A stretch of DNA of 51,506 bases, counting the filler, from Stramenopiles sp. TOSAG23-6 (lineage: Eukaryota): NCBI GenBank assembly GCA_900128565.1. It is 2 parts of 2 records of this genome, joined end to end, with 100 filler letters (N's around TTAATTAATTAA, not from the genome) between each part and the next. Parts side by side here need not be neighbours in the genome. Positions count along the whole stretch, not along the records: positions 1 to 25,704 come from LT635992.1; positions 25,805 to 51,506 come from LT635993.1. One strand, written 5' to 3'. The notes below the pieces were generated by a model. The model was not told the DNA's origin. It saw only the letters and a program-made list of their open reading frames with translations, and ran no database searches. Shown piece after piece: positions 56 to 46,080 of the stretch. How positions within the stretch are numbered: the first letter of the stretch is position 1; each line of letters opens with the position of its first letter. The translations under genes and the position numbers were made by a program.

Positions 56-1922
56 CCGCTTTACAGTATAGAAAGTTCACTCCGGGTACAACAATATTCG
101 AAAGGAATACCAAAGGTTGCACAGCCTATTTAGTTTTGAATGGTTCAGTGAAACTTTCATTTGGTAACAGAAATATATCATATGTAGCTCCTGGCGAATG
201 TTTTGGAGAAGAAGTACGTTTCATTTCAATTTTGAATTTATTATTTTTTCAAAAAATCCTTTTAAAAACCAACAAAATATTTTGAATTTAAAATATTCTT
301 CACAATACGTGCTTTACTTACAATGAATTCAAAGAGAGAAACTGATGCCTATGCAGTTTTTAAAAACAATAAAGCGATTGAATGTCCTGAAAATGATGTA
401 AACAAAATTGTATCATTTGTGGAATGTGCGGAAATTTCAGTTGAAGATTATTTGCTGATACGTTTAGAATTGCGAAAATCAAGTCAACAATATTGTAATA
501 TTTTACAAACAAAATTTTCTTTATTTCAAAAATGGTCAAAACCACAAGTCTACCAAATAAGTAAGAAACTTCAAATAAATACTTATAAACCAGGTACAGT
601 AATTTATCGAGAAAAAGATGATGCTACAGCATTATTTTTAGTTTTTTCAGGTGAATTGAGTGGATTTTGCAAGTCAACATTTCGACAAAAAGTGTATGTT
701 TTCATTATGAATTTCATATTTGTTTGTTTTTTTCGTACTAAATTTTGTACCTAATGAAACATTTGAATTTTAAATATTTTTTCACAGTGTGAGCATTGGC
801 CAAAAGATCCAAAAAATAAAGGTAAAAATTATTCCACCCATAAAATAAGTCGATCGTTCAAGGTAGGTGCTTTTACACCTGGATTATTTTTTGGTCTTGA
901 AGGTTGTACATTTTCATCATTTGAATTTCGATTTTGTTTTGTTTTATTTTGTACCAAATTCTGTATTACCTAACGAAATTCAAATTTTTGAAATATTTTT
1001 CCACATTACTTGTAAATCTGAATTATCTCGACAAATTCAGCAGAATAAAGCAAAATATAGTACACAGGATACAGCAAACAAATTTTCTTTCAAAATGAGT
1101 AGTGAACTTTTAGAACTAATTGTGTCAGTGGATGAACTAACTGATAACCCTAACCCTAATGAAAAATTAAGAATAGAATCTGATGTAGATCAATCAACAA
1201 TGAGTTCATCATTTGAAGATAACGAATCAACCATCAGACGTGATTTTTCAGTTATTGCAAAAACAAGTGTCACAATTGCAAAATTTGATTACAAGAATTT
1301 TAAGATTCTCCCTACATCATTACTTCAGCAACTAGTCGATTTACACGATTCTCATTCGAAAAGATTAGAGATTATAAAGCACAGTACCAATCTTATACAA
1401 GAAGAAAAACGAAATAAAAAGCTTCTGCGGTTAGAATACGGTACAAAATATTGGAGTTCTAAAACTCGTGTTAAAGATTTCAGTAAAGTTGAAAAAAAAA
1501 AAAGTAATAATAAGAGAGGTTTTCGGGGTGAGATTCCTATAAATAAAATGCGTCCAATGACCTCAATTACGCCATATAGTAGTATTCGTAAGCTTAAGCA
1601 AAATAAATGTAATAAAATACGTCCAATGACGTCAATAGATCACTCTTCAAATCATTTGGAAATACTTCAATCAAAGCTGGCAATACTTCAAAACCAAGAT
1701 CTTGAAACTTCAATCAGAAAAATTCAAACAAGTCGACGTAAATTCATTTTGAAACGAAATAAAAATATGAAACAAAATATAGAAAAAAAATATACTTCTG
1801 AATGGGATGAAAAACTTAAAAATAGATCTCAATCGTCGCGTAGACGACTCATTGAAAGGAGGGGAAATTATTGGCGAAATGATGTTTTTTTTGTGGGTAC
1901 TTCAAAATCTCATGTAATTTAG
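56..1922 (+). CDS. Cyclic-nucleotide-binding (cNMP) domain protein, 5'-partial, spliced
   Basis: Exons 56-213, 311-693, 793-905, 1012-1922 give two cNMP-binding folds (KFTPGTTIFER...AYLVLNGSV...PGECFGEEALL; YKPGTVIYRE...LFLVFSGEL...PGLFFGLEG) once the repeat introns are removed. Confidence 0.75.
214..310 (+). mobile_element. Introner-like intron, GT...GT, 97 nt, degenerate core
   Basis: GTACGTTT...CACAATAC-GT; removal gives CFGEE|ALL. Confidence 0.8.
694..792 (+). mobile_element. Introner-like intron (family register GT...GA, or canonical GT-AG at 692-787)
   Basis: GTATGTTTTC, core CGTACTAAATTTTGTACCTAAT, end TTCACAGTGT; both registers keep the frame. Confidence 0.7.
906..1011 (+). mobile_element. 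Introner-like intron, GT...TT, 106 nt
   Basis: TT|GTACATTTT...TACCTAAC...CACATTAC-TT|; joins FFGLEG-C-KSEL in frame. Confidence 0.8.
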
Positions 1923-2293
1923 AAGCTTCAAAATAAAGAATTAATGAAATACTACGACTACAACAGATATTTTCAAAATATATAAATATAATTTCTTCGG
2001 TCCACGTTAACGTTACCCGGTACTTCGTTTCGGCGGTTACGTTTTTTTCTTCTTTTCCTTTTTTCNTTTTTTTCCTTTTCATTTCTCTTGTACTTTCATA
2101 CATATATAGTAAAGTCATTAGACTTACTAGATAGGCATAGTAAGTGTAAAGCCCATCCCCTTATCTAACGACTCAAAGGTAAAATAGATTGTTATTCTAC
2201 GGATTAAAACCCTTATCTTTGATCGGTGGTTTAGTCCGTTTCTTTTTGTTATAGAGGTTTAAAGCATTTTTTGCTTTAAATAAATTAAGAAAT

Positions 2294-5200
2294 ATGCTTT
2301 ACCCTGGAGCTACAGTAGACTGTACGTATGACTCGAAGTTTCGAGCAGCACGTCCAGATGAACCATACACATATCACGGACACATTACAAATATTGACGG
2401 TCCAAATATTTTCATTGATTTTGGAGCTGATGGGGTTTTTCGTTTCGAAAAATTAAGCTCAAAGAACAATACTTTAGTGGATATAGATGGTTTTGAAATA
2501 AAAGTTAAAACTCTAAATAGTCCTCTGGACAAAAGCCGACAACGTCAGTATGCACCTAAACCTTTAAAAGTAGAGAAAACGATAAAGGAGGATAAAAATA
2601 TTTTAGATTTGTTTCTTAAAACCACGGAAGATGAACTGAACCAAGAGATCAAAGTGGAACAAAGGAATACTAGGGATTTCACGATTCCAGAGCTATCTGC
2701 TTCCGTTGGCAGAGATGCTGAAAGTCCCTCTTCTACAATGGAGGATAAAAAATCACTTGCTAACTCAGGAAATCAATTACGTATATCACATAGTCCAATT
2801 TCTTTAAAATCCCAACTTCGCAGTAACTCAAAAGACATTTCCGTCGGGGATGCCATTTCAGTCTTATATTCTGAATCATTTCAACAGGAATTCCCAGGAG
2901 AGCCATACGATTATACAGGAATTGTCACGGCAATAGTTCCAGAAACTCAATTTGAAAATGGAGAACTGGTTATTGATTTTGGAGTTGAAGGAGAATTTGC
3001 ATACAAGAAAAAACGAGATTCATGTATATTTTATTTTTTTTCAAATTCGAATTTTTTTTTCGTACGAAACTTTGTACCTAACGAATTTTTTTTCAAATAT
3101 TTTTCCAAAATACATATTTCGATCCTGATGATTTCGAGGTCCGTGTGAAAATAGTCCCAAATTTATCCTCTGTCAATCAAATTTTAGTTGACGATAGAAA
3201 CTATTTTGCGACAGCAGGAAATGATACATTTAATGATTCACAAGGTTTCGCCAGTTCGCCATTTGAAAAGCAACAAAATAATAACTTAAATACAAATAGC
3301 CGACCAACCTCAAGACCTGTGCCGGGGGTCAAACCTGCGTTATGTCGCCGACCAGTTCAATTTGCTTCATTTGAAGAGGGAAAACGACTTCAGCGAGTTC
3401 CGGCAAATGATTCAAGTTCGGGAAATCCAGGTTCACTTGGTGATATGACGTATGCAATGTCTGAATTATCGAAAATGGAAATTCCAAATTGGAGGGATCA
3501 TTGTGATGCACTGAAGGAAGGAAAATGGCAGGGAAAACGAGCAGCTTTGGTTGCTATTCAAGAACAATGTGAACGGATGGGACCTAATATTGACAAATTT
3601 CACAGAGGCGTTTCTTCATTTTGTTATCAATTGACGAAAAAATTCACTGAGCGGAATTTTAACGTTATTGCTTCTGCAATCGATGTAATAACAGTAATAG
3701 CAATGGCAGGCAATGATAAACACAAGAAATTTCCTAGAGGTATTGCTGCTCTTATAATGCCAATACTTCTAAAACAGGTAGGAGATCGAAGAATTGGTGC
3801 TTCTATAAAATCACTTGCAGGTATCATTGGAGAGTGTTGCGGTGTAAAATGGATGATTCGTTTAATAACTGATACTAGTAAAAAGAAAAGCTTTAAAGAT
3901 CCAAAGGCACTTGCAGCTGTCCTCGATATAATTGCAACGTCATCCACTGAATTTGGTCCTAATGCCGTTGACCTTGATGCTGTTGTAAAATATGTATCAG
4001 GTCCGAAAGGAGTTGCACATCACCAAGGTCGTGTTGTAAATGGAGCGGCGGTAAAAGCATTAGGAGTTTTATATACCCTGGTAGGTCAACCAGTAAAAGA
4101 CATTCTTGAAGAAATGCAAACTTCGAATAAGATTATGAAACAGTTGAAAACTGCTTTTGAGGCTGGAGATGTTAATGCCAAAATAAAAGGAGGATTTACT
4201 CCAATAAACCGCAATAAATCATTAAATAAAAGTCTGAATGCTTCTAAACATAAGTCACCAAAGAAAAGTCACAGTCAACTTAGACGCTCTCTATCGAATC
4301 AGAGAAATAGTCCTACAAAACGCGGAGGTAGTTTTCTGGGATCAACACTTACTAGTTCTACTTCCAACAATTCCAATAGTACACCAGAAGAAGAAGAAAA
4401 GGCATCACAAAATGATGATATTGAGCGTATGGATATTTCACCATTTATTACAGATGATTTACTAAAGAATTTACTCGACTTCTCGAAAACGGATTCTTGG
4501 AAGCAGAGAAAGTTAGGGCTTGAAGAGTGTCATGAAATTATGACAAAAAGAGCCAAATATAGAATTATTGTAAATCGAACACTAGAAAAACTTATCAAAA
4601 TTTTAAAAGACCGTTCACTAGAAAAAAATGCAACACTTAAAATTAAAGCTCTGAAAATAATTGGCATTTTAGGATTGTCAATTGAACGGAATCATCCAAG
4701 ACGCAGTGAAATGACTCGATGGCTTGCACCTGCAATCGTAGAAACATTTGCAGACAAAAAGAGAGCTACTCTCGCAGCGGGAATATCGGCACTAAGTAGA
4801 TGGTCTTCTGGTCGATTTGGATTGTCAGGAATATTACCATCGACATGTGCATCTTTAGTAGACAAACCTGTCTCCCGTCCAGCTTTACTTGCATGGTTAT
4901 TAATACATATTCCAAAGGCAACCTCTGCTGGACATATCGATGGTACTCGCATGACAAAGTTATTAGTGAAACCATTGCTAATTTGTATGAACGACAAAAT
5001 GAAAGTGGTACAAAAACAAGCCGCAAGTGTCCTCGTAGAAGTTATTCGAGCTGATAAGTCTCACGCGAGACTCGCTGTTTCTGAAGCAGCGAGTAAATTC
5101 TCAAAAGCGATACAAAGGAGTATCGATATTGTTTTAGAACGTGTAGATACTGCTGTGGAATCGGGGAAATCTTTTAATTCGGTTGATCAGCAAGCAGCAA

Positions 5201-11441: not shown

Positions 11442-13459
11442 TTATAATTCTTTATCATTCATTCTTCTATCTTCAGGCATCGGGGAATACATTCGTAAGC
11501 CTTTGTTATCATTAATATTCAGAACCAATGTTTTTCTTCTATTTTTTGTAGCCTTTTCATTTTTAGTTTCCTCTTCAAAAATTGTATTTGCGGCTACAAC
11601 CATAGCGTTAGGCACTGTACCTGTCAGATTATTTTGATGTAAATCAATGACACGTAGCGTTTGAAGTTGACGAATATTTCCAATATGCTTTGGTATATTA
11701 CCTTGAAAGAAATTGGTCTGAAGGTATAACGATTCTAGATTGTATAGAAATCCAATTTCTTTGGGTAATTTGCCAGAAAACTGATTATTGTATAAACTTA
11801 ACCATTTCAACTTCTTTAATTTTCCAATATGAGCAGGTAAAGAAGAAGAAAAATTGTTATTTTGTAAAGCCAAATAAACTAAGTTTTCCAATTTACCTAT
11901 TGTAGGTGGCAAAGGACCATTAATCTTATTATTTGCCAAAGTCATTGTTCGGAGTGCGGTGAAGGCACCAAGAGGAAGTATTGTGAAAAAATATGTTACA
12001 TTTGAATTCTTTAGGTACAAAATTTTCAATGAAAAAAATAACTTTTACATTAAAGTGTATAACGTACAACAGTTGGTAAGTTTCCTTTCAGCCGATTATT
12101 AGATAAATCAATGCCAACAATTCTCCCTTCCTCGCACAATATTCCAGTCCAAATATATTATGAAAAAATATTTCAAAAAAAATCGTTAGGTACAAAATTT
12201 CGTACGAAACAAAAACGAATTTGAAAAAAAAATAAAACATACATATATCCTCGACTTTTATTAGCATATTTTGCAGTTGCAGCACCACCAGCATAACATG
12301 GATCTGAGTTACTTGCCATCCACCCTGAATTTGATATCCAATTTGGACCATCTAAAGCATAAAAAATTTCTAACAACGCTTTTTTTTCCTCGGGATGGCA
12401 CCGATTTCTATATCTGATTGCATCATCTATTTTTGGTAGTGTACCGGGCAAACTGTTTTCCTCTGGATTTGTAGCAGGGATAAGGAAATTGGACTGTGCA
12501 AATGCTTTGCCTGTACCTACTGCCGTCGTTGGAATTTCTTGACTGGGTGAAGCTGGTACAACTTCCCCCTTTTCTCTTTTTTCACGCCTCCACTCCGACA
12601 ACATGTTTAACGCTAATGCTTCTCCCCTATTACCTACAATTACAACATCCCGAGAGTCTTCTGCGCCATATCGGTAAATATTATAACCACCGTTGTCCCA
12701 CTTTACTCGCACCGCATATTTATCTCTAGCAACTTCACCACTCCACCAAGTCACTTCCATTACAATACCTTTTGGATACACAAACTGACCATCTTTTGAA
12801 AAATCGATACCTCCATCTTGATTGTCCCATTTCCAATCAGGTCCTCTGGTCACAGTACTACCAGCTTCGATGTCGTCATAATTATATTCCCTAGTTTGCA
12901 GATAAGCAAATATTGGGTTTTCTGGCGGTTGAAAAACGTCCAATCGTCTTTGTTGCATTAATACTCGGAGACGCTGTTGCTCCTGTTGTCGCAGGGTATG
13001 CGACTCCGCTGCAGCACCATGGTGAGCTACAGGACTAGTGAAACGTTCACTGTATTGTTCTTCTACGATATTTTCAGAAATTAAATTACCAACATTCGAA
13101 GTGCTTTCACTATCTTTATCGTTGGTTGGTGTCTGAATATCCAAAATATTCACAATATTATATTTACTCTTTTTGTTGTTTGTAGAGAGAGCATTTTCTT
13201 GCTCCCCAGGGAGCAAAGCATTATTCTCTGCATTTTTATGGGAACTTACTATAGTGGGATCTTGAAAGACAATCTCAGTAGGTTTCCCTTTCGGATACCA
13301 ATATGGTATATTATCTTCCAAACTACCCCTTACCCATTCTATGTCTTTTGAGATGGAAACTAAGTCATTTACAACTTCCAAGGGACTAGCTAGACATGTA
13401 GGGAGATAAGAAACTATACCGTGTCCAATGATGCTAAATAAAATAACTTTTAATCGCAT
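11442..13459 (-). CDS. Secreted protein: signal peptide + MIB/HERC2 domain + LRRNT + plant-type LRRs, spliced
   Basis: Exons 13459-12243, 12152-12068, 11975-11442; VTRGPDWKWDNQDGG...VRVKWDNG..NIYRYG; EKKALLEIF...W.G..C; LxxLxLxxNxFSGxLP repeats. Confidence 0.8.
11976..12067 (-). mobile_element. Introner-like intron, GT...TT, 92 nt
   Basis: TT|GTACGTT...TTTTGTACCTAAA...CACAATAC-TT|; gives LKGNLPTV|PLGAFTAL. Confidence 0.85.
12153..12242 (-). mobile_element. Introner-like intron, GT...AT, 90 nt
   Basis: AT|GTATGT...core...CATAATAT-AT|; restores GY-I-WTGILC of the LRRNT. Confidence 0.85.
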
Positions 13460-14947: not shown

Positions 14948-16124
14948 ATGCCACCAACAACTAGATCTCAAGTGCTAAAGCAGCTCAGTGAACGGATTGA
15001 GGAAATTTCAGATCACAATGATAGAAACTGTCGTGTTTTGCATAATACCCGCACAATCATTGCTGGAATTACATCTGAATTAGAAAAAGCTAATAGTAAG
15101 TATAATAGTACTGAGCGAAGTAAAACTCGCGCGCGTGGATACCGGGGAAACTATGACACTCGGTACCAAAAGCGGACAAAGTATAACACAGGTCATGGAA
15201 GAGGTCGGGGAAAAGGACGTGGGAGAGGTCGGGGAAGAGGTCGTGGGAGAGGACGTGGAAGAGGACGTGGTAGAGGTACTGGAAGATATACTGGAAGAGG
15301 GTGTGCTAGAACGCACCGAGGATCTAGTGGTAGTTGTAATTCGGTGAAAAATCCGAGGAAAATAGGAAATACTGGAAATTTAGTCTGGATTGCACCAAAA
15401 AAAGGCAGTCGTACTTCTCCAACTGATTTTAATAATAGTTTTATAGAAAAAAAAAAAAAAAACGCAACAATATTGTACATTTTACTGCCGATATGGTCGT
15501 TGTGCTAAAGCGGGTAAGTGTGAATTTATACACGATGCCGCAAAAGTTGTACGTTTTCATTTCAACTTCAATTATTTTTTCATACGAAATTTTGTACCTA
15601 ACAAATTTAAGTTTTTTTTTTTTGAAATATTTCTTTACAATACTTGCAGTTTGTAAAAAATTTTTGAGAGGTAGTTGCAAAGATAAGAATTGTCTATTAT
15701 CTCATAAAATATCTCCAGAGAAAATGCCTGTTTGTATATTTTATCTCTCTGGGGTATGCCCTAAAGGCAAGTCAAAATGTCCATATTCGCATGTGAGGGT
15801 AAATCCTAGTGCTCCCATCTGTGTAGATTTTAATAATGCCGGTGGTTGTCGATTAGGTGTTGTACGTTTTATTTTTTTTTTTAGTAAATATTTTTTTTTC
15901 ATACGAAATTTTGTACCTAACGAATTAAATTTTTTTTTTTTTTCACAATACATTTGTGCCCTCATCGACATATAGTACAGTCAAAAAAGCGACAAATTCA
16001 AAATAAATCTAATGGAAACCGTCTTTCAAATAACCCTAACAAACGTATGAAAACTGAAACAAGCACAAGTTGGGATATAAAAATAGATGATAGTATGAAA
16101 GTTCGACCACAATTCGCAAGATGA
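14948..16124 (+). CDS. CCCH zinc-finger protein (ZC3H3-like) with RG repeat, spliced; apparent 1-nt frameshift in an A16 run
   Basis: Tandem CCCH fingers YCTFYCRYGRC...HDAAKV|AVCKKFLRGSC...KMPVC...CPYSHV...CRLGV|LCPHRH; introns 15549-15645 and 15862-15953; poly-A at 15447-15462. Confidence 0.8.
15195..15300 (+). repeat. (Gly-Arg)n coding repeat
   Basis: GRGRGKGRGRGRGRGRGRGRGRGRG. Confidence 0.9.
15549..15645 (+). mobile_element. Introner-like intron, GT...TT, 97 nt
   Basis: TT|GTACGTTTTC...TACAATAC-TT|; restores HD..KV|AVC. Confidence 0.9.
15862..15953 (+). mobile_element. Introner-like intron, GT...AT, 92 nt
   Basis: Removal restores C-x5-C-x3-H spacing (CRLGV|LCPHRH). Confidence 0.9.
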
Positions 16125-25804: not shown

Positions 25805-25857
25805 TTGTACCTAACAAATTTTAGTTTTTTTTTTTGAAATATTTTTCCAAAATACAT
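25805..25857 (+). mobile_element. Introner-like intron, 3' part (mirrored at 51454-51506)
   Basis: TTGTACCTAAC...TTTGAAATATTTTTCCAAAATAC-AT. Confidence 0.8.
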
Positions 25858-26196
25858 GTCATTGTTGATGCATTGCATCGTGGGGACGTCCTCGCAGCAT
25901 TATGCCAAGAAACATTTGTACGTTGTCCATTGTACTTTGAATTTTTGATTATGAAAATTTCGTACGTACCTGACGAAGTTTTTTTTTACCGAAAAAAAAA
26001 ATATTTTTTCACAATACATATTTGTTTTATTTTTTTGAATTTTGAATTTATTTTTTTTCCGTACCAAATTTTATACCTAACAAAAAAACAAAAAAACAAA
26101 ATATTTTTTACAATACTTGGCGATCATAGCATTGTTCAACGGAAAGAATTATCGACTTTGGAAGTTTCAACACCACAAGGCCCTTCAAAAATATAG
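25858..26196 (+). CDS. 3' end of an unknown gene (exons 25858-25917 and 26119-26196); mirrored at 51115-51453 (-)
   Basis: VIVDALHRGDVLAALCQETF|GDHSIVQRKELSTLEVSTPQGPSKI* after removing the tandem introner. Confidence 0.5.
   Translation, partial: VIVDALHRGDVLAALCQETFVRCPLYFEFLIMKISYVPDEVFFYRKKKYFFTIHICFIFLNFEFIFFPYQILYLTKKQKNKIFFTILGDHSIVQRKELSTLEVSTPQGPSKI
25918..26118 (+). mobile_element. Two introner copies head-to-tail (25918-26019 and 26020-26118) forming one GT...TT intron
   Basis: Two complete core and (C/T)ACAATAC ends with no exon between; TT on both outer flanks. Confidence 0.75.
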
Positions 26197-32300: not shown

Positions 32301-35226
32301 TCAATTCTTCCAATTCATCATTAGAAAGTCTCAGTGCAAAAGAAATTTGCATATCCCGCAACGCCTCGCGAAATTCACCGGGCGATATGAAACCATTACT
32401 ATCAGTATCATACCCCCGAAAAAGTGAAGTCAAATGTTTCTGCATCACTTCAAAACTTTCCCTTTCTTCGATAGAAACAATAAGATGATCTTCTACACTA
32501 GGCTTTTCCCATACACACACTCCAGTTGCAATTTCCCAATAATAAGGATAACCATCCTCACTCATATGTTCTTCCCATGTGTGAGGAATACGAGCAAGCG
32601 CTGCGGCTTCTGGGTCAACATTTGTTCCAAGTTTTATATTTGTTATTATATCTATTTCTAGATTTGATTCTTTTTCAAATGATTGTATTGTTTCTTGGGT
32701 CACTTTATTGGATACTTCACTTGTTGATTTATCACTAATATTCAAACCACCTGCTAATTTCATTAACTTTAGTTTTTTCATTGCCGATTGCATCGCTTTT
32801 GGTGGTTCTCGCTTATTGCTTGCAAGCCAATGTTCTACTTTTGTCTTTGTTAAAAGTGTAGCTTCATCTATACTAACCTTTCCATCACCATTACCCATTT
32901 TATCTGCCATTAACAATAACTGTTCTAGCTCATTGTCAGGTATTGAAAGAGCAAATGCAATTTGCATATCTTGTAGTGCAGCGCGAAACTCTCCAGGGGA
33001 TATAAAGGAACTATTATCTTTATCATACTTTTGAAATAATGTTTTGAGTAGAATTTGTCTTTCTTCCTCAGTTTCTTCATGTTTTCGAAGCATCAAATGT
33101 TTTGGTATCCCAGCAGGATACTCCCATTGACTTGTATTTGTGTCTGTATTGAAGAAGAAAAGTGTTCCATCTTCAGCTTTATGCTCTTCCCATTCCCCGA
33201 GTTTTGTTGTGTCTCCAACACTGACAACACGAATTCTATTCATTATTTTTCGTATCTTTGAAACTCTTTGCGATTTCACTTTTATTTTTTCCTGTGCATC
33301 ATGCGCTATAAGCCACTCTTCAATAGTTTTAAGCGACAGATTGAGAATCTCTGAGATACTCACTTTACCATCACCATTTTTATCAGCAGTACTAAGAAGA
33401 GATTGTATTTGTTCATCAGATAATGACACAGAAAGTTTTGCTATATCTATTTTGTGTAAGTCTTTCAAACAATTCTTAAACTCTTGAATTGATATTTCTC
33501 CACTATGATCTTCATCGTAAACACGAAATAAACCTTCTAAACGATGTTGTCGTTGTAAAATCCCGGCATTTCCTTCCTTTGCAATTTTTTCTGGTAACAC
33601 ATCCGCTGGAGGGTGCCAAAGAGAGTTTTCTGTCAAAATATTATAGTAGAATACACCGCCTTTGCCATCTTCACATGTATTATGAAAACAAAATTTAAAA
33701 ATTCGAAATTCGTTAGGTATAGAATCTTTGGATTTGGTATGAAAAAAAATAAATTTGAAATTATAAATTAGGGTTTTAAATGAAAACGTACATTCTTCCC
33801 AAGAAACAGGAATTTGTGCAAATATATTTGGGGCAGATTTTGAACTATTAAAAGCTGATTTATGTGCGCGTATAGCAACAACAGATGCATCATATGCAAA
33901 GTATGCAGCATCTGAAGCAGATTTCGCTGCTTTTACTTTTTCCCTATCAAAAGCCCCTAGTTGATGAAGTTCTGCCTCTGCACGGCCTACACTTAATTTA
34001 GCATTTTCACATTCTTCCTGTAAAGCATTCAATTTTATTTTTTGTGAATTCAGTTTTAATTTTATTCTATTCAATTTCAATAATTGTTTTTGAACATTTT
34101 CCTCCGCTTTTACAATATTTGTTTCGAGTATTTTAATATTTTTCCTTGCACTGGTAATGGCAACTTTATTAGATTTAAAAGTTTGACCCCGACTGATAAG
34201 AGTCTGGAGGCGCTCAATTTCAGCATTATTTGCATCAAAATCGTCCTTTGCGTTTCGTTTTATATTTTCAGCATTTTCATATTTTATAGTTTCTGTTGTG
34301 ACCTCATTTTTGATGTTATCGAATATTTTTTGTGCTTTTAAAACGCGTTTTTGTAATTGCTCATATTTAGATTTATTCTGTGATATTGTTTTCATTGCAA
34401 CTTTTTCGGACTCTCCACACAATTCAAGATAGGCTTGTAATTCTCCAGCTGCATGAATTATGAAAAAATATTTCAAAAAAAATATTTTTTCGTTAGGTAC
34501 AAAATTTCGTACGTAAAAAAAAGATAAAAAATTGAAATGAAAACGTACATCTATTGATTCAAAGAGAACTCTGTCGTGTTCGACTTTGAGTTCATTGTAC
34601 AGTTTTGTCATTCCTTCCAGTTTTTGTTTAGATTTTGATAACTTTGCTTCTCTTTTTGATATTTGGTTTTGAACTATTTCTATTTTTTTATCACATTTTT
34701 TGAGCTTCTTTTTCTTTGCGTTTTCAGTCTTCAATTCCGTTTTTTCTGTGTTGAGTTGTTCCAGAGCAGCGATTGATTCATTGTACACACCAAGGATAAG
34801 AGAATGTTCTTGTTGACTTTCTTCCATATTTTGCTTTGCTGTCAATAACTTTTGAGCTGCCTTGGCATGAAGCGAGGCTATTTTTTTATGAGCTTTCGCG
34901 GCAATTCGACTAGCTTTAGCAGCTGCTTTCTGGTCAACCTTTTCGTCTCTTAAATACTGAAGAAAATCGCTCTTTCGCCTGTTAAATCTTTTCATCTGTA
35001 TTTCTTCTGGCGACAATCTACTATTTTCTGAGAGTTTCACTTGTACTTTCATTTTCCTGAATAATTTACCGAGGCGCTTGGCAGGTGCCTCGACTATACT
35101 TGAACCATCTGCTTTTAAAATAAGCCACGGTTTAACGCCTTGAGGCGCTTCCCACTGAGAAGAATTTGTTTCCGAGTCAAAATAAAATACACCTCCTTCG
35201 CCATCATCATGAATTTCCCACACCAT
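26356..35226 (-). CDS. Giant multi-WW / EF-hand / coiled-coil / IQ protein, spliced
   Basis: Repeated WEEH...YY.N..T..SQWE.P and YDxDxSGxIS...D.NGDGKVS modules; IQ motif CIQSLARGMLTR; introns 33675-33791 and 34453-34548. Confidence 0.85.
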   Translation of the reverse strand: MVWEIHDDGEGGVFYFDSETNSSQWEAPQGVKPWLILKADGSSIVEAPAKRLGKLFRKMKVQVKLSENSRLSPEEIQMKRFNRRKSDFLQYLRDEKVDQKAAAKASRIAAKAHKKIASLHAKAAQKLLTAKQNMEESQQEHSLILGVYNESIAALEQLNTEKTELKTENAKKKKLKKCDKKIEIVQNQISKREAKLSKSKQKLEGMTKLYNELKVEHDRVLFESIDVRFHFNFLSFFYVRNFVPNEKIFFLKYFFIIHAAGELQAYLELCGESEKVAMKTISQNKSKYEQLQKRVLKAQKIFDNIKNEVTTETIKYENAENIKRNAKDDFDANNAEIERLQTLISRGQTFKSNKVAITSARKNIKILETNIVKAEENVQKQLLKLNRIKLKLNSQKIKLNALQEECENAKLSVGRAEAELHQLGAFDREKVKAAKSASDAAYFAYDASVVAIRAHKSAFNSSKSAPNIFAQIPVSWEECTFSFKTLIYNFKFIFFHTKSKDSIPNEFRIFKFCFHNTCEDGKGGVFYYNILTENSLWHPPADVLPEKIAKEGNAGILQRQHRLEGLFRVYDEDHSGEISIQEFKNCLKDLHKIDIAKLSVSLSDEQIQSLLSTADKNGDGKVSISEILNLSLKTIEEWLIAHDAQEKIKVKSQRVSKIRKIMNRIRVVSVGDTTKLGEWEEHKAEDGTLFFFNTDTNTSQWEYPAGIPKHLMLRKHEETEEERQILLKTLFQKYDKDNSSFISPGEFRAALQDMQIAFALSIPDNELEQLLLMADKMGNGDGKVSIDEATLLTKTKVEHWLASNKREPPKAMQSAMKKLKLMKLAGGLNISDKSTSEVSNKVTQETIQSFEKESNLEIDIITNIKLGTNVDPEAAALARIPHTWEEHMSEDGYPYYWEIATGVCVWEKPSVEDHLIVSIEERESFEVMQKHLTSLFRGYDTDSNGFISPGEFREALRDMQISFALRLSNDELEELMSFSDTNNDGKVDLVEATQLTHNVIKVWLKSRQYSVKDVIKSSISKMNVWGLSEFDFAKAGGSLLGKWEEHKAEDGTLFFFNTDTNTSQWEYPAGIPKHLMLRKHEETEEERQILLKTLFQKYDKDNSSFISPGEFRAALQDMQIAFALSIPDNELEQLLLMADKMGNGDGKVSIDEATLLTKTKVEHWLASNNREPPKAMQSAMKKLKIMGFTKPSGTSAPLIKQPQKHEWEEHIDADGHTYYWCIVTGQCQWNKPDVPVELLKKIDGKLNSIERQKHIQSLFTSYDADNNGFISSSEFQQVIFDMQVKDAFKIDGKIIPMNDEQLDALLSSADSNADGKVSIVEAAKITYKYVEEWFQKQRNPPTAIKSALNKMKLVGLHGNILKNVVPKVENVKNDTDTETINETELDFVDSIKTKISDVDNSVVDSIETKISDVDNSIVDSIETKISDVDNSKIDATESIGEENVVAKIISIDEINSSRAIGESSEINGIDEHEHVLSLLKNLGSRVDLIKIDENYFILQMFRKLLGHRCKLKTRTYKSGNVTPKDETEDKLVMKNAIIIAKSIANCVTEFASTLERDIVEIENFIEIEKKKICLAQYIQESANVAITASIAIKLVLDETETSINHAIMKAQAYTVESERPVKKNGALKILLKNAMKAKSVSSAWISRVKEDCELAAQKEESLRHEVESLQSELSICENNVCDAQNILSNAIVKVEEKVRLTTIKLSKREANVETLKIESFHVVGARETEKLQSRIEEELIAIETERQRIKSMCTSNSADVLSAKKDLQQTENESKKVALKCTKVQKDWEAAQNDANQKLTNVTNAKQQAFKEEEAIQSSRNTIMQQVELENERDHLAFTAFSLNKTCNIAAEKLKRLRKQSQILDHTEGRTIGEDRQNKTDIGTMRLHDEHIDDVNEMKKKTTEIDNVENEATEKEIIEIEAAEEELRKAKEEAKHAKAAWEAKRIACKKAEEAAAAKRVAEEEAAALKKRIETAKLERTNAKANVENAAKIRESLSATLQRIKEEEASAVAFEIQTECSRDEILAMKRQRRLEVEAEATAAHGYLQSTLDSNKPEAAAVFDKISENLKKLTALEFETTQNLNEEVNFAKQKTTLKEEELRNAKEALAISSLDYDAANAMYNVKKLEEEEIHSYLQVCAQKKALEASARKAKLRASIQKSKLSHLRQQLEWQCNIKNAAKVAAIKTLENVETNSRLKHEMYQNAKDDYNKVVKASQLAVENTIGDKTSSIAWYIAATASEAALQCYIKAEIMLAMTLIETAAHEEIQAISAAKQAEEEFRKINVKWANEFSSAAIVRHDSEETQTALLENAVKEHEKVKEQLKNSVLHHSEALAARVAWDSSSNDRCKTSRSISEKRRIDRHKRKAEYDNAIDARNAKAQQAEKDAREKAKEASRIKRVKQQQEWREKAMAKARAKVAATVASSATVEAMFMFNLCKSSVILARKRKIQIECSKEVAIAAYVAAGAAVYSFKLSKNAIQSIVSAKHRLRPILAKAAYVSASALLIARRERHRADHFVLDCIKSNQDAYRRHVVALKIEERQCGKSMADAATVCYQSALSSALSSAVAMAYVGSTIARHFSNIAANANDKVQEELRIRQEAITVAIQRAVIISCDAASFASTKSSLAISEAIRVKKVRRQELQNAARAARIAARAARRAFKYAEQVLVYIKAEISSFQNTSKWREIYNHKKMRYYYINKTTNEKTYMKPGPLLLKDEARMKLLKFGAEKAREMMLLQKSRQKLQQNDQCIDNLNTDKAFNIKDVDNASFFRRNHQSKAHPSFILKEKLKPISFSTINTILSMEFGLDWAELSPIGQLRCMRMSREKTALHNKVASCIQSLARGMLTRLRLKKLKSDADPKDNTFIHTKSRRRQSRKPKYTGKILNIQQPDKYYLPAIRPVIHDTCKKPFPKQVKINQRKKNRRFGARNRPTFGSDEGRKLASKMGLSSFGNPSFTLS
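30930..31068. repeat. 42-bp tandem repeat, about 3 copies (DSIETKISDVDNSI)
   Basis: TACTATTGTCTACATCACTGATCTTTGTCTCTATTGAATCAACGA repeated. Confidence 0.9.
31679..33192. repeat. Near-identical ~420-bp internal direct repeat (31679-32100 and 32771-33192) encoding a WW + EF-hand-pair module
   Basis: Offset 1092 bp, very few mismatches; KWEEHKAEDG...MKKLK repeated in the protein. Confidence 0.9.
33675..33791 (-). mobile_element. Introner-like intron, GT...AT, 117 nt, in frame
   Basis: Removal gives WEECEDGKGGVFYY, colinear with the N-terminal WW (WEIHDDGEGGVFYF). Confidence 0.9.
34453..34548 (-). mobile_element. Introner-like intron, GT...AT, 96 nt, in frame
   Basis: AT|GTACGTTTTC...CGTACGAAATTTTGTACCTAAC...CATAATTC-AT|. 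Confidence 0.85.
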
Positions 35227-36444: not shown

Positions 36445-36515
36445 GGAGTTTTCAAAACATTGAAATTTGTTAGGTACGAAATTTTCATACAAAAATAAAA
36501 AAAAATCGGAGATTT
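36445..36515 (-). mobile_element. Intergenic relic of the introner core
   Basis: TTTTGTATGAAAATTTCGTACCTAACAAATTT on the minus strand, without recognisable ends. Confidence 0.55.
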
Positions 36516-36678: not shown

Positions 36679-38569
36679 ATGAATCGTCTTTCTTGCTTTT
36701 CTGTAAGTATGTCAAAGCACCTAATTGGAATTTTGGTCTCATTATTTCTCCCCATAATTGTTCTCGGCACACATAGTGATGGACCAAGTGGAGGACGGAG
36801 TAAGGAAGTTTTGAACATGATGAGCGACTTCTCTTCAAAGTTGGCAAATATTGATGAAAGTATGCCAATCGGGTTAGATGATTTCTCGAATAGATTTAGA
36901 GGCTCTAGTGAGAGAGATTCCGGGATACAAATAACGATAAAGGAAAAAGAACTTCCTCAAAAAAATTTCCCCTTTTTATCATTTGATCCGCTTACATTAC
37001 TCGAAGACCAAAGCACTAACAAAACTCATCCTCAAACCAACAATACTCAACCTCAAGCCAGTAGCATAACTCAACCTCAAGCCAGCAACACAACTGATGT
37101 GCGTTTTCAAAATCAATTTCGATTTTTATTTATACCAAATTTTGTGCCTAACGATTTTTTTACTGATTTTTTTTTCACAATACATCAAGCACAGGGATTA
37201 AATTCAACCCAAATCCAAGGATTGCATGGGAATTCTACTATAACAGAGCCTTTTGTATTGGACTCTCATCGAGCACCAGGAGTTCCATATTATCATGCAA
37301 CTAAGTCAACAGATCTTTCTTCTTCTTCTTCTTCGGAAGATAACTGTTGCTCAGATAGCTTGGCACCAGGAATCCCAGGTTGGACTTCGGATTTAGATAT
37401 AATTGATGAGAATGCCATTCGAGCAATGGAAGGTGCCATGTACGTTTTCAAAATTTATTATTCTTATCTATTTTTGTTGTTGCAAAAATTGAACTCAACT
37501 TTCATACAAAAAAGAAATATTTCTTCACAATATAGTAAGCCTGTGATGAGACGAGCTGAACAAGATAAGCAAGTTGCAGATTTGATGACGGAACAAGCCA
37601 AGCTCTTTCAAGAGAAGGCTTTGGGTAGTCAGAAAGTGGCTCAAGAGACAAAAGAAAAGGTTGATAAATTGACATCTGCTGTACGAGCTAAACAAGATAT
37701 ATTTATTGCAACGGGACTCCATCAAGATGTACGTCTTCCATCATTTTAAATTTTAAATTTATTTTTTTGAAAAACATCTGTACCCTATGTTAACAAAAAA
37801 ATCAAATTTGAAATATTTTTTCACAATACATGCAGTGAGAGCACAATATATCACAAAAGCCCAATTGAAAGCTCAGGAAGCAACAGTAAAGCACCTACGG
37901 AAAAAATCAGAAGAAGCCGATGAAGCTCAAAAAAAATCATCGGAACGACTAGACAAAGTAGTACAGCAGTTTAAAAGTATTTCGAACCAACTACCTAGTG
38001 TCTTCATGGCACAAAAACTAGCTCAGAGGGCAGAAGATGCAGTTGGTAAACCTGAAATGAATGGTTTAATCGAAACATGGAATTTGCAGGGCATGGATCC
38101 GGACTCTCATGAAAATACAAGAGATACAAAGAATTCAGTGACAGTCGAAATTTCACCAACTCCATGCAAAGCTTCAAGTGAACCTTGCGGTGAATCGAGA
38201 CCAGCGGACGCAGCAGAAGCAGACACAGCAGACCCATCAGCACCAGCACCAACACCGCCAAATCCACCAACAACACAAGCAAACGCAGAAGCAGTACCGG
38301 CAGCAATAACAGAAGATTTAGCAGAAGCAAAAGCAAACGCAGCAACAGCTGGCACATTGGTGGAGTCAAACGCACATTCCGCGGAAAGCAGAGGAGACTT
38401 CGAGCGTTTGAAGGAAAGCCTCGAGAATAGTATTCAACGGGAGGCAGAGCGTGTGAAAAAACGCCTCGAGAATATCGAGAAAATACAAAATTCAATTACA
38501 AAGGAAATTTCTTCACCAGTGAAAGGTGAAAAAGAGGGAATGACTCAAAAAAGTGAGCCTATAGTATAA
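36679..38569 (+). CDS. Secreted coiled-coil protein A of unknown function, 3 introns
   Basis: Signal peptide; exons 36679-37098, 37186-37439, 37536-37728, 37832-38569; paralogous to 40096-41520. Confidence 0.7.
37099..37185 (+). mobile_element. Introner-like intron, GT...AT, 87 nt, in frame
   Basis: AT|GTGCGTTTTC...TTTTGTGCCTAAC...CACAATAC-AT|. Confidence 0.8.
37440..37535 (+). mobile_element. Introner-family intron with canonical GT...AG ends and eroded core, 96 nt
   Basis: AT|GTACGTTTTC...CACAATAT-AG|; AG lies exactly at the family's terminal NN position. Confidence 0.8.
37729..37831 (+). mobile_element. Introner-like intron, GT...AT, 103 nt
   Basis: Joins ORFs 36523 and 37787; spliced product is colinear with the intronless paralog. 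Confidence 0.88.
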
Positions 38570-41553: not shown

Positions 41554-43615
41554 TTATATCGAAACTTTGGTTGACTGATCTTTCTTTATACAGTCATTGT
41601 CCGAGCTAAGAAAAACGGGTGTTTTGTAGCATCTGCCTTGGACTAACTTTGAAAGCCCTTCGCCACTGAAACTTAATTTGGCAGACACTTCACATAAATC
41701 TTCACCAACTACAGTAGCACCTGCCGCTATCAACCATTTTCTATGTAGGTTTGACGTCATGAGTCTAGCTGTTTCTGGCGAGTCATTTCCCGTCGCGTTC
41801 TTGACTGGCGAAAATTCATTCTCACGATTCACTTCAAGTACTACAAGGTTACTTGCTATAGGGAACAAATCAAATATGAATGACTCTAATTTTATACCAT
41901 TTCTTTCTCTCGGGTTTGGATCATCGACACAAGGAATCACACAATGTGAAAAAATATATTTTTTTTTGGCTGAAAAAAAATCGTTAATTACAACATTTGG
42001 TACAAATAAAAAAACAAAAAAAAATTCAACTTTTGAAACGAACACTTTCTTTGCAATATGGTATTTACGAGGCAAATTATTCGGTGCACAGTTATTTTTA
42101 AGAAAATCAAAAGAGTAGTAGTGTATGCAAACGTTACCTGCACGAAAAGTAAGTTGACCGTTCAAATCACACTTTTTTAATAATTCTGGTTTCATATCAG
42201 AATATTCCACGACGCAAGTGATGTATTGTGAAAAAAAAAAATTGTTTTTAGTAAAAAAAATCAGTTAGGTACGAAATTTCGTATGAAAAATATATACTGA
42301 AAATATTCAATTTTGAAAACGTTCATTCCGGAGCGACGACAGAGTACACCCACTTTCTCTTCTGGGTTAGTTTTCGACACAACTTTGTTACCTACATCTG
42401 CATTTCGATCTCGGCAATAGCCTACAAATACTGGATCTCCCACTTTACTCATTGCATTATCAATTGCACCACACCAAATATGTATTGTGAAAAAACATTG
42501 TTTTTTGGAGAAAAATCGTTAGGTACGAAATTTCGTATGAAAAAATTGAAATTTAATTTTGAAAACGTACACTCGACACTCCTTTACGTTGCATATGACT
42601 AATTGGGGATTCCGTGCCTAATGTTGATCCACAACCATGTAGGGCTCGATAGATCCCACCATTACCGTCTGGTGCAGTCGCTACTTCAAACTTAGATTTA
42701 AGAAGAATTTTACCATCCGGTGAGAGACAAGGTAAAGTATTGTGAAAAATATATTTTTTTTTTTTTGTAAAATAAAAAAAATTGTTAGGTACGAAATTCC
42801 GTACGAAAAAAAAATAGGTAAAAAAAATTCAATTTTGAAAACGTACAAGTGCCTTGCTTGAAAAACACGACTTGATCTTCAGCTAAGCCAAAGTTATTAT
42901 TAGCTTTGAAATATTTTACTGTATCATCATATATTGTCAAATAATATGGTTGAAGTTTGAAATTCGTTAATTTTTGGAAGAGTACAAAAATTGGATTTAA
43001 TTTGGGTAGTAAATATACAAAAAAACTCAAAAAAAATGCTAGGTACGAAATTTTCTACGAAGAAAAAAAGTAAATTTGAAATTCATCATGAAAACGTACA
43101 TCAGTCATTGGACTCGTCATTACATATAACCAGACTTTTGGCTGCACATTTGAAATTTCAGGAAAGTTCATTTTCGCAAGTTCTTGTAGTTTGAGTATGC
43201 GTTCACACTGCAACTGGAAAAGACTCTTTTTGCTCAAGAGACCAATGTTAAATTCTCCTTTTGGACGATTGGATTTCAAACGTGTACCTTGACCTCCCGC
43301 CATAATGATGACACCTAATTCTTGCATTGCAACAGCTTTCAAGCCATTGTTGCGCCATGCTTCAGTTTGGTCATTTGGGACGTCACTTAAAACAGTAACC
43401 GATTCGCAAGGTTGGAGGGTTCCACCAGTTCCACTCTCAGTAGCAAGACCATCCATCGTTGCTTTATAAATATTGTTGACGTACTCAGGGTCGTGTTCGC
43501 CTAATTGTTCTAAGAACATCTTCAACTCAATGTTTGATGAATCCTTTTCACAAAATCGCATGACATGTCCCTGTTTGGCATCTGCATAACGCTTCTGCTG
43601 AATAGAAAAATTCAT
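41554..43615 (-). CDS. UAP1: UDP-N-acetylglucosamine pyrophosphorylase, 5 introns
   Basis: [46 protein letters not shown]...[33 protein letters not shown]. Confidence 0.95.
41939..42043 (-). mobile_element. Introner-like intron, GT...GT, 105 nt, in frame
   Basis: GT|GTTCGTTT...CACATTGT-GT|; restores HIAKK-V-IPCVD. Confidence 0.85.
42221..42324 (-). mobile_element. Introner-like intron, GA...AT, 104 nt
   Basis: AT|GAACGTTTTC...CACAATAC-AT|; restores [17 protein letters not shown]. Confidence 0.88.
42480..42570 (-). mobile_element. Introner-like intron, GT...AT, 91 nt
   Basis: Gives [13 protein letters not shown] with the usual G-to-DN spacing of UAP. Confidence 0.88.
42735..42846 (-). mobile_element. 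Introner-like intron, GT...TT, 112 nt
   Basis: Restores conserved QGT-L-PC. Confidence 0.92.
42929..43099 (-). mobile_element. Composite introner intron, GT...AT, 171 nt (truncated copy plus a second degenerate copy)
   Basis: Restores MTSPMTD|DDTVKYF; a second TT-GTATATTT start lies near 43018. Confidence 0.8.
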
Positions 43616-43727: not shown

Positions 43728-43923
43728 TTTAACTATATCAAGTCCACGACACGTGTGTGAGCAGTCACAAATTCACAAGTCATGATGTGTACCAACAACA
43801 ACAACAACAACAACAACAGCAAAACATTGTATTAGTTTATTTTGAGTAAATATTTCAAGATGGTACGATACCTCGATACAGTTTAATCTAACAGAAAGGC
43901 TTGTAAAACATAATAGCATATTA

Positions 43924-46080
43924 ATGAGTGAATTAGCTTTATTTCGTACTTCTTTACGTCTACAACTGAAACACTTTTCAAGAGTTTCGAATATTCCCAA
44001 CAGTCATTTTGCTTTTTCCACGGCTACTCCTTCAAACTTTGTGCGTTCACTTGTAGCATCAGATGTAGCAAATGGAAAGTTTGGTGGTCGAGTTCAGACA
44101 AGATTTCCACCAGAGCCAAGCGGCTACTTGCATATTGGACATGCAAAAGCCATGTGTATCAACTTTGGAATAGCCAGTGATTATCGCGGCGGTTTATGTA
44201 ACTTGAGATTGGACGATACAAATCCGGCTAACGTTAAGGAAGATTACGTCGCTGCAATTGCTGCTGATGTAAAATGGTTAGGATATAATTGGGATGGCGA
44301 TATACTCTATGCATCAGATTATTTTGATGATTTGTTTAATTTTGCTAAAGCTCTTATTAAGAGTGGCAAAGCTTATGTCTGTGAAGTCTCGCAGGATGAG
44401 TGGCATAAAGGAGGACACGCTGGAACTTTAACAACTCCTGGTGTACCATGTAAATATCGCAATAGACCAATAGACGAGAGTTTACAACGATTTAATGAAA
44501 TGCGTGATGGAGTTCATCCGGAGGGTTCAATTGTTCTTCGTGCAAAAATCGATTTATCATCGTCGAATATGCACATGAGAGACCCTATGAACGTTTTATT
44601 TTTTTTTACAAAAAAATCGATTTTTTTTTCGTACGAAATTTCGTACCTAACAAATTTTACAATTTTTTTTTTTCACAATGTATACTATATAGAGTGTTGA
44701 AAAAAAATCACTTTCGCACGGGCTCTACATGGAAAATTTATCCGACATATGATTATGCGCACGGTATTTCCGATGCGATAGAAGGTGTTACACACTCTTT
44801 ATGTACTTTAGAGTTTGAAGAACATCGTGCTTTATATAATTGGTTTGTTGATGCGGTTGGTGTTGGAACTGGACTTTGGCATTCAGACGATGATGGCGAT
44901 GTGATGAAACGCCAGCCTGAACAAACAGAGTTTTCTAGACTAAATATATCCAATTCAATTACATCAAAACGTTGGCTTCGTGCTCTCATTGATGCAGATA
45001 TTTTATCGGGTTGGGATGATCCTCGTATTCTAACGATTGCTGGGATGAGAAGACGTGGTTACCCGGCTCCCGCAATTAGAGGTTTTTGTAATGGTACAGG
45101 TTTTAATCGCACATCTGAGGGGGTAGTTGATATGAAAATGTTAGAATCATTTGTCCGTGATGAATTAGATAAAAATGCTCCTCGTGCTATGGGAGTTTTA
45201 TACCCCTTGAAAGTTATCATTGAAAATTTTGATGATGCGTTTCGAAGTTATGGTTCAAAGAATAACCCTAACCCTAGTTCAAATGAGAATCTTGGTGGTA
45301 ATAGTGCTACTCTTTGTATTCCAAATCATCCCAAGAATCCTGATATGGGCACGAGAGCGGTGCCAATTTCGAAGGAAATATTTATTGATAGAAATGATTT
45401 TAAAATTGAGGCGAACAAAAAGTTCAAGCGCATGTATGTTTTCACATTTTAAATTTTGATTTTTTTTTCATAGTAAATTTTGTACCTAACGATTTTTGAT
45501 TTTTTTTTTGAAATCTTTTTCACAATACATGACAATGAAACAAAGTGTTCGTCTCCGAGGATCCTTTATCATTCGTTGCAAAAAGGTAATTACAGATAAA
45601 GTTACTGGTGAGCCTATAGAATTGCACTGTGTTGCAGACGAGAATTCAATCGGCAATAACCCTGATCTTAAAAATGGGCCGAAACCAAAAGGAGTTGTAC
45701 ACTGGGTTTGTGGAAGCAGTTCTGTTCCAGCAGAGGTTCGACTGTACAGTAATTTATTTATTGAAGATTGCGAAGATCCAGTAGCTGCTGCAATGGAAGC
45801 CTCGAAATTGCATGAATGTAATAATGATAATAGCAATGCTTTACCAGATGTGTCGTTTTTTGAACCATTTTTGAATAAAACTTCGAAAATTGTGATTTCG
45901 GATTGTCGCGTGGAAACAAGTATTTCACAGGCTACCCACGGAAGTGTGTTACAATTTGAACGCGAAGGATATTTTGTTATTGATGATGATTCTAAGTATA
46001 CGAACGATGGGAAACTAAGTAGTCTTGTGTTGAACAAAACGATTGGTTTAAAGGCAGGGAAGGGATTTGCTCGGAAATAA
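43924..46080 (+). CDS. glnS: Glutaminyl-tRNA synthetase (short, bacterial-like, with putative organellar transit peptide), 2 introns
   Basis: TRFPPEPSGYLHIGHAKA, LRLDDTNP, MRDP-I-LYR, IYPTYDYAH, THSLCTLEF, GWDDPR, PKGVVHWV, QFEREGYF. Confidence 0.93.
44589..44683 (+). mobile_element. Introner-like intron, GA...AT, 95 nt
   Basis: AT|GAACGTTTT...CGTACGAAATTTCGTACCTAAC...CACAATGT-AT|; restores conserved MRDP-I-LYR. Confidence 0.92.
45434..45530 (+). mobile_element. Introner-like intron, GT...AT, 97 nt
   Basis: Restores KFKR-M-TMKQSVRLR, matching GlnRS KR-to-VRLR spacing. Confidence 0.9.

Follow-up and report, generated by a model that had tools for sequence, protein, structure and literature searches.

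In Micromonas, Aureococcus, and Pelagomonas, introners occur as one family of many short sense introns in unrelated genes, flanked by direct repeats, with the element and one repeat copy removed together and one splice signal borne by the element. As far as the cited texts describe them, known introner families produce duplications of 3–9 bp (PMC9860276), and in Pelagomonas every putative introner has an AG acceptor, the terminal inverted repeats being conserved (10.1101/2021.10.25.465678). The introners of Amoebophrya (Syndiniales) are described as repeated elements with non-GT-AG borders that are blurred by direct repeats over the exon/intron boundaries, with inverted repeats of 8–20 nt serving as an end-joining hairpin, direct repeats of 3–5 nt, and no common dinucleotide signature (PMC7789003). 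In the tunicate Fritillaria borealis, non-GT/AG splicing is described as genome-wide and U2AF as divergent. Here we describe a family of repeated introns in a 51,506-nt window, by which we mean the whole stretch of DNA analysed, from Stramenopiles sp. TOSAG23-6 (GCA_900128565.1). The family appears to have each of the features listed above for Micromonas, Aureococcus, and Pelagomonas, and its host lineage, like those of Aureococcus and Pelagomonas, is a marine stramenopile. Unlike the introners of Pelagomonas, its copies are never GT-AG in any equivalent register, and their termini are inverted over only ~4–7 nt, imperfectly; the flank duplication is 2 bp, compared with the 3–9 bp of known introner families. 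From its sequence, the family appears to be a variation on known introners and non-canonical introns, combining non-AG 3′ ends with a mostly canonical donor. We put the probability at roughly 0.7 that it is a high-copy, non-autonomous, transposon-derived introner that has non-AG 3′ ends and is removed by the major spliceosome, with the 3′ cut set by a conserved sequence block.

A 25-nt core, TTTCGTACGAAATTTYGTACCTAAC, is matched 16 times in the window at ≤3 mismatches and not once in 100 shuffles, and a profile search (nhmmer, with 10 copies in the profile) yields 35 matches at E≤0.1, a figure that includes reverse-strand sub-hits on the palindromic core and one assembly duplicate. We counted 23 family introns between positions 214 and 45530, spread over 12 genes (Table 1). 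The element copies in them number 24, since one intron, the tandem double at 25918-26118, holds two. The introns are 87–117 nt long except for one of 171 nt, whose 3′ half is degenerate, and the 201-nt tandem double, and they contain 20% G+C compared with 36% for the window. All 23 are in sense orientation, on the strand of the flanking open reading frames (ORFs). They begin with GT (21) or GA (2) and end with AT (15), TT (5), GT (2), or GA (1), so that the final base is T in 22 of the 23 and the base before it varies. A first-pass annotation of this DNA, made from the sequence alone, had already recognised an abundant introner-like family in constant sense orientation, and both points hold. 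Its 24 complete introns in 12 genes become 23 introns in the same number of genes, and its tally of terminal dinucleotides is the one given here apart from a single AG, which exists only in the TA-AG register of intron 694, the sole copy with an equivalent register ending in AG.

Alignment of 22 copies reproduced the consensus proposed in that annotation and revealed three conserved blocks, separated by spacers that vary in content and length. The columns of the 5′ block, T|GTAYGTTTT, are nearly invariant, the middle block is the core, ..CRTACGAAATTTYGTACCTAAC / ..TTTTTTTCRTACGAAATTTYGTACCTAAC, and the T-rich 3′ block reads TTTTTTCACAATAC-NT or, with an optional G, (G)AAATATTTTTTCACAATAC-NT, and ends in CACAATAC. 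A branch-motif scan found a CTAAC-like core (CTAAC, CTAAT, CTAAA, or TTAAC) in 18 of the 23 introns, with the branch A 33–50 nt from the 3′ end and T-rich sequence after it; in the remaining five the scan landed on another weak motif. The spliceosomal look of the donor and CTAAC motif, also remarked on earlier, is a property of most copies for GTAYGT and of 18 for the branch motif. Directly before CTAAC, the core contains a 16-nt palindrome, GTACGAAATTTCGTAC (for example at 44627-44651), which is why nhmmer also matches the core on the opposite strand. RNAalifold returned 0 pairs and no consensus structure for the 22 copies and so does not back the palindrome as a conserved hairpin; the palindrome could serve to bind a protein or be left over from a transposon. 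The intron termini are inverted only as GTA..TAC, which can be extended to 4–7 nt at best. A further copy with the same ends, cat|GTATG..CACAATAC AT|gg, is found in an unrelated metagenome contig (L001), the only locus matched by the 25-nt core in one metagenome scan.

The length that must be excised can be read from the coding sequence. Under the rule that each intron is cut from G(T/A)AYGT to two bases beyond CACAATAC, the offset class containing +2 after CACAATAC links the long ORFs on either side in 19 of the 22 elements tested and is ambiguous in three (15549, 25918, and 26020, the last two being the halves of the tandem double). The tandem double is the weakest case, with flanking open codons numbering only 26 and 40 and lacking homology support. 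At all seven junctions in conserved genes, two in the gene for glutaminyl-tRNA synthetase (GlnRS) and five in that for UDP-N-acetylglucosamine pyrophosphorylase (UAP1), the rule gives a product that is gapless relative to homologues. For GlnRS, the rule-spliced conceptual product was compared with 8 bacterial-type homologues, picked for sufficient length among 120 listed, and aligns without a gap at MRDP|ILYR and KKFKR|MTMKQSVRLRG. For UAP1, 10 homologues were compared with the locus by tblastn and 4 alignments were inspected; homologue coordinates run on without a break across introns A–D, and at the fifth element the homologues are gapped exactly over the insert, at HIAKK|VIPC. The earlier statement that this excision length restores conserved motifs is thus upheld. 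Retention would break the frame or add stops in 18 of the 23 introns. The first AG beyond the branch motif is in frame for no more than 6 of the 23, as expected by chance, and GT-AG is absent from every register that leaves the mRNA unchanged (0/23), in agreement with the earlier remark that the acceptor AG is missing. A search for frame-preserving, stop-free GT/GC..AG alternatives, with donors displaced by ≤15 nt and acceptors by -15 to +30 nt, found none for 10 of the 23 introns, including four of the seven at UAP1 and GlnRS junctions.

The 2 nt before the intron are identical to its last 2 nt in 19 of the 23 introns (permutation mean 10.06, with 0 of 50,000 permutations reaching 19), and the L001 copy shows the same repeat. 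This flank repeat is new relative to the first-pass annotation. The TT and GT cases show it to be direct and not inverted, and it appears to be the signature of a 2-bp target-site duplication, a length typical of Tc1/mariner and ISL2EU elements. With such a duplication the arrangement matches known introners of transposon origin, in which the element and one repeat copy are removed and the coding sequence is restored. Four introns (214, 694, 15862, and 42570) lack the full 2-nt repeat. A helitron-like insertion between A and T was considered and rejected, because the variable base goes with the upstream flank, as in a duplication. The flanking direct repeats leave the true cut sites ambiguous by 1–4 nt: in introns with the repeat, the registers GT..NT, TG..CN, and NT..AC yield identical mRNA. 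The GT-AT and GT-TT ends first proposed are therefore one valid register, but NT..AC is equally allowed in 19 of the 23 introns.

Table 1. Family introns, partial copies, and other features of the window. Ends are given in the GT..NT register; a vertical stroke in coding sequence is replaced by a slash.
Feature	Position	Strand	Length (nt)	Ends	Remarks
Intron	214..310	+	97	GT..GT	gaa/GTACGT..CACAATAC GT/gct; without flank repeat
Intron	694..792	+	99	GT..GA	3′ block CACAGTGT; GT..AG alternative 3 nt longer
Intron	906..1011	+	106	GT..TT	flank repeat tt
Intron	3024..3115	+	92	GT..AT	TOG/CLASP-domain gene
Intron	11976..12067	-	92	GT..TT	
Intron	12153..12242	-	90	GT..AT	MIB_HERC2-domain gene
Intron	15549..15645	+	97	GT..TT	CCCH gene; ORF test ambiguous; same-length +4 GT..AG alternative
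Intron	15862..15953	+	92	GT..AT	CCCH gene; excision gives C-x5-C-x3-H; 1-nt flank repeat only
Intron	19421..19516	+	96	GT..AT	
Intron	20823..20925	+	103	GT..AT	ankyrin/WW gene, TALH/IAAS
Intron	25166..25258	-	93	GTAAGA..AT	multiple of three, in-frame stop-free
Tandem double	25918..26118	+	201	GT..TT	contig-end gene
Intron	33675..33791	-	117	GT..AT	within WW domain, SWEE/CEDGKGG; multiple of three, stop-free
Intron	34453..34548	-	96	GT..AT	multiple of three, stop-free; same-length +4 GT..AG alternative
Intron	37099..37185	+	87	GTGCGT..AT	multiple of three, stop-free
Intron	37729..37831	+	103	GT..AT	core degenerate
UAP1 intron E	41939..42043	-	105	GTTCGT..CACATTGT GT	flank repeat gt; gap in homologues exactly here
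UAP1 intron D	42221..42324	-	104	GAACGT..AT	gapless junction; without canonical alternative
UAP1 intron C	42480..42570	-	91	GT..AT	gapless junction; without canonical alternative
UAP1 intron B	42735..42846	-	112	GT..TT	KQGT/LPCL gapless; without canonical alternative
UAP1 intron A	42929..43099	-	171	GTACGT..GACAATAT AT	MTD/DDTVKYF gapless; polyA contig departs at donor
GlnRS intron 1	44589..44683	+	95	GAACGT..CACAATGT AT	MRDP/ILYR gapless; without canonical alternative
GlnRS intron 2	45434..45530	+	97	GTATGT..AT	KKFKR/MTMKQSVRLRG gapless
Partial copy, 3′ part	1..55	+		..CACAATAC TT	truncated by contig start
Partial copy, 3′ part	25805..25857	+			second-contig start; inverted again at 51454-51506
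Inverted duplicate of tandem double 25918-26118	51193..51393	-			contig-end duplication, probably assembly
Partial core copy	36451..36501	-			without family ends; upstream of ATG of minus-strand ORF
Non-family canonical intron	46303..46439	-	137	GTACGT..ACAG	joined in polyA RNA contig; comparison case
Telomere-like repeats CCCTAACCCTA	1148-1158, 13853-13863, 16144-16154, 43704-43726, 45266-45276				

Read evidence covers positions 41224-51506 (UAP1, GlnRS, and beyond) and comes from an environmental DNA run (X2), two polyA RNA runs (X8 and X10), and a non-polyA RNA run (X5); the contig evidence rests on the displayed part, in which 15 joints are shown, with 291 joints and 9,035 pieces beyond the display. 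Stretches that lack RNA cover carry no weight in it. In X2, the summed depth is 3,300–18,600 in element bins compared with ~7 in unique bins; these depths are contig means summed over contigs and organisms, and hence poor measures and not copy numbers, yet they suggest that the element is present in thousands of copies. DNA contigs from X2 (records 8-12) run uninterrupted through exons and elements, so the elements are not an artefact of amplification or assembly. In the polyA run X8, element bins have a depth of 0–7, about that of single exons (0.7–4.7), even though they are 470–2,600x enriched in DNA. A polyA contig from X10 (record 2) matches the window between 43312 and 43099, and 12 unmatched letters follow. 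Position 43099 is where UAP1 intron A has its predicted donor, allowing for one G common to the predicted next exon, whereas the GT-AG donor of the public model for this intron would need a match as far as 43096. Another X10 contig (record 4) links 46301 to 46439 across the canonical minus-strand GTACGT..ACAG intron, and AG-ended introns therefore coexist with the family in the same organism. The proposal of the first-pass annotation that 3′ splice sites are AG-independent throughout the lineage is consequently too broad, and the RNA evidence for the family in this region consists of one donor boundary and the polyA depletion, with no acceptor junction seen. Among the 15 joints displayed (291 more being undisplayed), none is an element-sized deletion over the seven UAP1 and GlnRS elements. 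Near-identical transcript-derived proteins across GlnRS exon 2 were not found in the protein collection searched (best identity 51%), nor were near-identical shorter proteins for region 100-320 of the public UAP1 model, P0122 (best identity 59%).

The data establish the family, its flank repeats, and the exact length to be taken out; spliceosomal removal, the chemistry of the 3′ end, and the transposon origin belong to a mechanism that we infer. Each copy would bring a donor of the U1/U6 type (GTAYGT), a U2-type branch region (the palindrome, then CTAAC), and the T-rich 3′ block with CACAATAC at its end. On insertion, a 2-bp target sequence (in most copies AT, in others TT or GT) would be duplicated, and RNA splicing would take out the element with exactly one copy of the duplication, leaving the coding sequence as it was before insertion. 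The duplication reads NT where an AG would be needed, so no AG could precede the 3′ cut. The first step of splicing would be independent of AG, and in the second step the conserved block of T-tract and CACAATAC would fix the cut at +2. A U2AF-like factor might bind this block; the tunicate case offers a plausible model for such a reading of the 3′ end. Only tentatively, and at slightly less than even odds, do we suggest that the spliceosome measures the 3′ cut as a ruler would, two bases past the T-tract and CACAATAC, whatever those bases are and without an AG. If so, a transposon with a 2-bp duplication would excise itself perfectly from mRNA and could colonise coding exons by the thousands, conserved enzyme genes included, and the family would represent a second independent route, beside those of tunicates and Amoebophrya, to non-AG splicing on a genomic scale, here with canonical AG introns retained.

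Several observations weigh against this reading. No transposase was seen in the window, and the terminal inverted repeats are short and imperfect, as described above. Some frame-preserving GT/GC..AG alternative exists for 13 of the 23 introns, and in four of them (15549, 34548, 37099, and 37729) a GT..AG alternative has the same length, shifted by +4 to a weak GTTTTC donor within the element. Five of the 23 introns have a length divisible by three, are stop-free in frame, and hence could be retained. Family introns are not bridged by any of the RNA contigs displayed. The coarseness of the depths counts here as well. In the polyA run X10 element bins are still 17–174 deep, and in X5 they are 600–3,700 deep with an element-to-exon ratio like that of DNA. 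One X5 contig (record 17) extends into intron A; the element signal in X5 is unspliced RNA or DNA in that library. A 157-nt contig from X10 (record 1) matches only over 42330-42473 (144 nt), with 8 and 5 loose letters at its ends, and the match stops 5–6 nt inside both predicted ends of UAP1 exon 4. Its loose ends may be adaptor read-through of a 144-nt insert, with adaptor visible in loose ends in X8 and X10.

The main uncertainty of the mechanism is whether the register is GT..NU or NU..AC. In the latter, the 5′ cut would fall 2 nt upstream of GTAYGT and the 3′ cut right after ..AC, so that the same introns would be NT..AC and mostly AT-AC. The AT-AC terminal pair is tolerated in U2-type and U12-type AT-AC introns, where A at the first position is compatible with C at the last. 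The mRNA would be unchanged for the 19 introns with the 2-nt flank repeat, 8 of the 23 may be read as AT..AC, ..AC is conserved before NT in 17 of 23, and both GA donors (42324 and 44589) would start with AT and no longer be anomalous. We nevertheless regard this register as unlikely. It makes the 5′ end variable (AT 13, TT 6, GT 3, AA 1 by upstream dinucleotide), giving TT..AC, GT..AC, and similar pairs in the other introns, it places the conserved GTAYGT at +3, unlike any known U1/U6 pairing, and it predicts a different codon at the four introns that lack the flank repeat. In U12-type introns the donor is rigidly (A/G)TATCCTT and the branch site, TCCTTAAC, lies 10–20 nt from the 3′ end, whereas the family has GTAYGTTTT, which does not resemble ATATCCTT, and a branch region, GTACCTAAC, 33–50 nt from the end. 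Splicing could instead follow ordinary GT-AG rules at nearby cryptic sites, with the family ends irrelevant. The public model P0122 was constructed in this way, a canonical intron is spliced within the same window, and the 13 introns with alternatives, four of them of equal length, would permit it. However, the 10 introns with none include the four conserved junctions noted above, at the remaining three such junctions the alternatives remove 2, 5, or 10 residues relative to the gapless family-rule product, P0122 holds element-derived peptides that are absent from every homologue, and the X10 contig ends at 43099 and not at 43096. As a general explanation, cryptic GT-AG splicing is disfavoured, and we consider it very improbable.

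Two further explanations dispense with the spliceosome. Euglenid nonconventional introns and the internal eliminated sequences (IESs) of ciliates resemble the family in being short, precise inserts in coding sequence with unusual borders. Removal from RNA by a structure-guided process like that of the euglenid introns would accommodate borders that are non-canonical and variable, as well as the short complementarity of the intron ends (GUA..UAC) and the small core palindrome. The GTAYGT donor, CTAAC, and T-rich tract, however, are classical spliceosomal signals, and because the 22 copies have no consensus secondary structure the family is set apart from the euglenid introns, with their end-joining structure, and from the hairpin-guided introns of Amoebophrya; there is little chance that such a process removes them. 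It would be more surprising still if the elements were kept in RNA, as pseudogenes or tolerated inserts, or were cut from DNA in an expressed nucleus. The five introns that could be retained and the richness of library X5 in element sequence fit that view, but 18 of the 23 would wreck the frame, all 12 host genes, the conserved UAP1 and GlnRS genes included, otherwise keep long intact ORFs, and the sense orientation of all 23 is a signature of selection for splicing. Ciliate IESs are TA-bounded and removed from DNA, and element-free somatic DNA exists. In contrast, the borders here are NT|GT..NT, the long ORFs use the standard code, and environmental DNA contigs contain the elements with no element-sized deletion among the joints shown, although contigs cannot prove that element-free DNA is absent.

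Measured against described intron classes, the preferred reading of a spliceosomal introner draws on several of them. The donor, GT in 21 of 23 and extended to GTAYGTTTT, and the branch motif with pyrimidine tract, in 18 of 23, are those of canonical U2-type introns, but the 3′ end lacks AG; repetition of nearly the same sequence across unrelated genes (23 introns, 12 genes) is a trait of introners. With the introners of Amoebophrya, as these are described in the text cited above, the family shares repeated non-GT-AG introns, direct repeats at the boundaries, and ambiguous borders, and it differs from them in its strong GTAYGT donor, CTAAC branch, fixed 3′ block, and 2-nt repeat, in place of a hairpin at the ends and repeats of 3–5 nt. 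Fritillaria borealis and related tunicates are described as handling non-AG 3′ ends by the spliceosome on a genomic scale, as is proposed here. Unlike this animal lineage, where both ends are non-canonical, the stramenopile has a canonical donor in 21 of 23 introns, a single repeat family, and canonical introns beside it. Canonical donor and branch signals combined with a non-AG, block-defined 3′ end would make the family a clean natural system for studying the requirements of the second catalytic step, and for learning how a transposon turns into a neutral intron.

Downstream exons of four introns (15549, 19421, 34548, and 37729) all start with GCAG, and 13 of the 23 start with G. This recurrence may reflect a preference for certain insertion sites or a vestige of an AG acceptor. 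Use of GCAG as a true AG acceptor was considered: it would shift the frame with the GTAYGT donor and is workable only with the weak GTTTTC donor at +4, which yields a GT..AG alternative of equal length at three of these four introns and at 37099.

The public gene model GSMAST32.ASY1.ANO1.2261.1 (P0122) corresponds to the UAP1 locus at 41557-43615 on the minus strand, and its exons are identical to the window. Its reliance on GT-AG sites makes the model translate portions of three elements and omit parts of true exons. If annotation of the lineage assumes GT-AG, every gene with such an intron will be mis-modelled, and such models would corrupt the protein sets used for phylogenomics and metatranscriptome mapping. 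By its own account, one introner survey drops any family whose splice sites are unfamiliar and lack confirmation by transcripts (PMC12130899). A family like the present one would be invisible to surveys of this kind because they start from annotated introns and discard unfamiliar sites. The main texts of two large introner surveys (PMC9860276, PMC12130899) mention neither 'MAST' nor 'stramenopile'. In the main text of a paper on single-cell genomes of uncultured stramenopiles (PMC5778133), 'intron' occurs twice and 'splice' and 'canonical' do not occur, and PMC12614181 contains none of intron, splice, or canonical. Across this literature on introners, non-canonical introns, and MAST-3 or other uncultured stramenopiles, taken as main texts and apart from supplements, no description of the family was found.

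The window is eukaryotic nuclear DNA. It is AT-rich, with a G+C content of 29–44% per 2-kb bin, and is made up of two contigs with an N/TTAATTAATTAA/N linker between them at 25705-25804. An inverted copy of the second contig's opening 516 nt (25805-26320) stands at the far end of that contig (51149-51506), probably an assembly artefact at a repeat. Besides UAP1 and a GlnRS of bacterial type, domain-annotated genes in the window include TOG/CLASP, MIB_HERC2, RNase T2, CCCH zinc-finger, and ankyrin/WW genes. The best-ranking named relatives of UAP1 are stramenopiles (oomycetes, a diatom, and Cafeteria). Scans of the window with Rfam at gathering thresholds and for tRNAs gave no matches. In public data, 93% of sampled words from the window are found in one small DNA run from 2015 and 40–71% in three seawater metagenomes from 2024, with small shares in marine metatranscriptomes.

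The GlnRS gene (43926-46082, plus strand) has top matches that are ~50% identical and named gammaproteobacterial, and its product carries an N-terminal extension ahead of the catalytic core. The two family introns inside the gene mark it as nuclear, and the enzyme may be organelle-targeted or bacterial in origin. Within the 1368-residue ORF at 46849-50955, X2 DNA contigs (records 13 and 14) break at 47337-47345, and a 361-nt RNA contig from X5 (record 19) matches only as far as 47337; strains may differ here, or a short segment may be variable. Telomere-like interstitial repeats, CCCTAACCCTA, occur in 5 exact copies in the window and in none of 100 shuffles. At least two are in frame within coding sequence, where they are translated as ..NPNP.., and the one in GlnRS lies within an insertion of ~20 residues missing from all 8 aligned homologues. 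The intron at 33675-33791 likewise carries AAACCCTAA.

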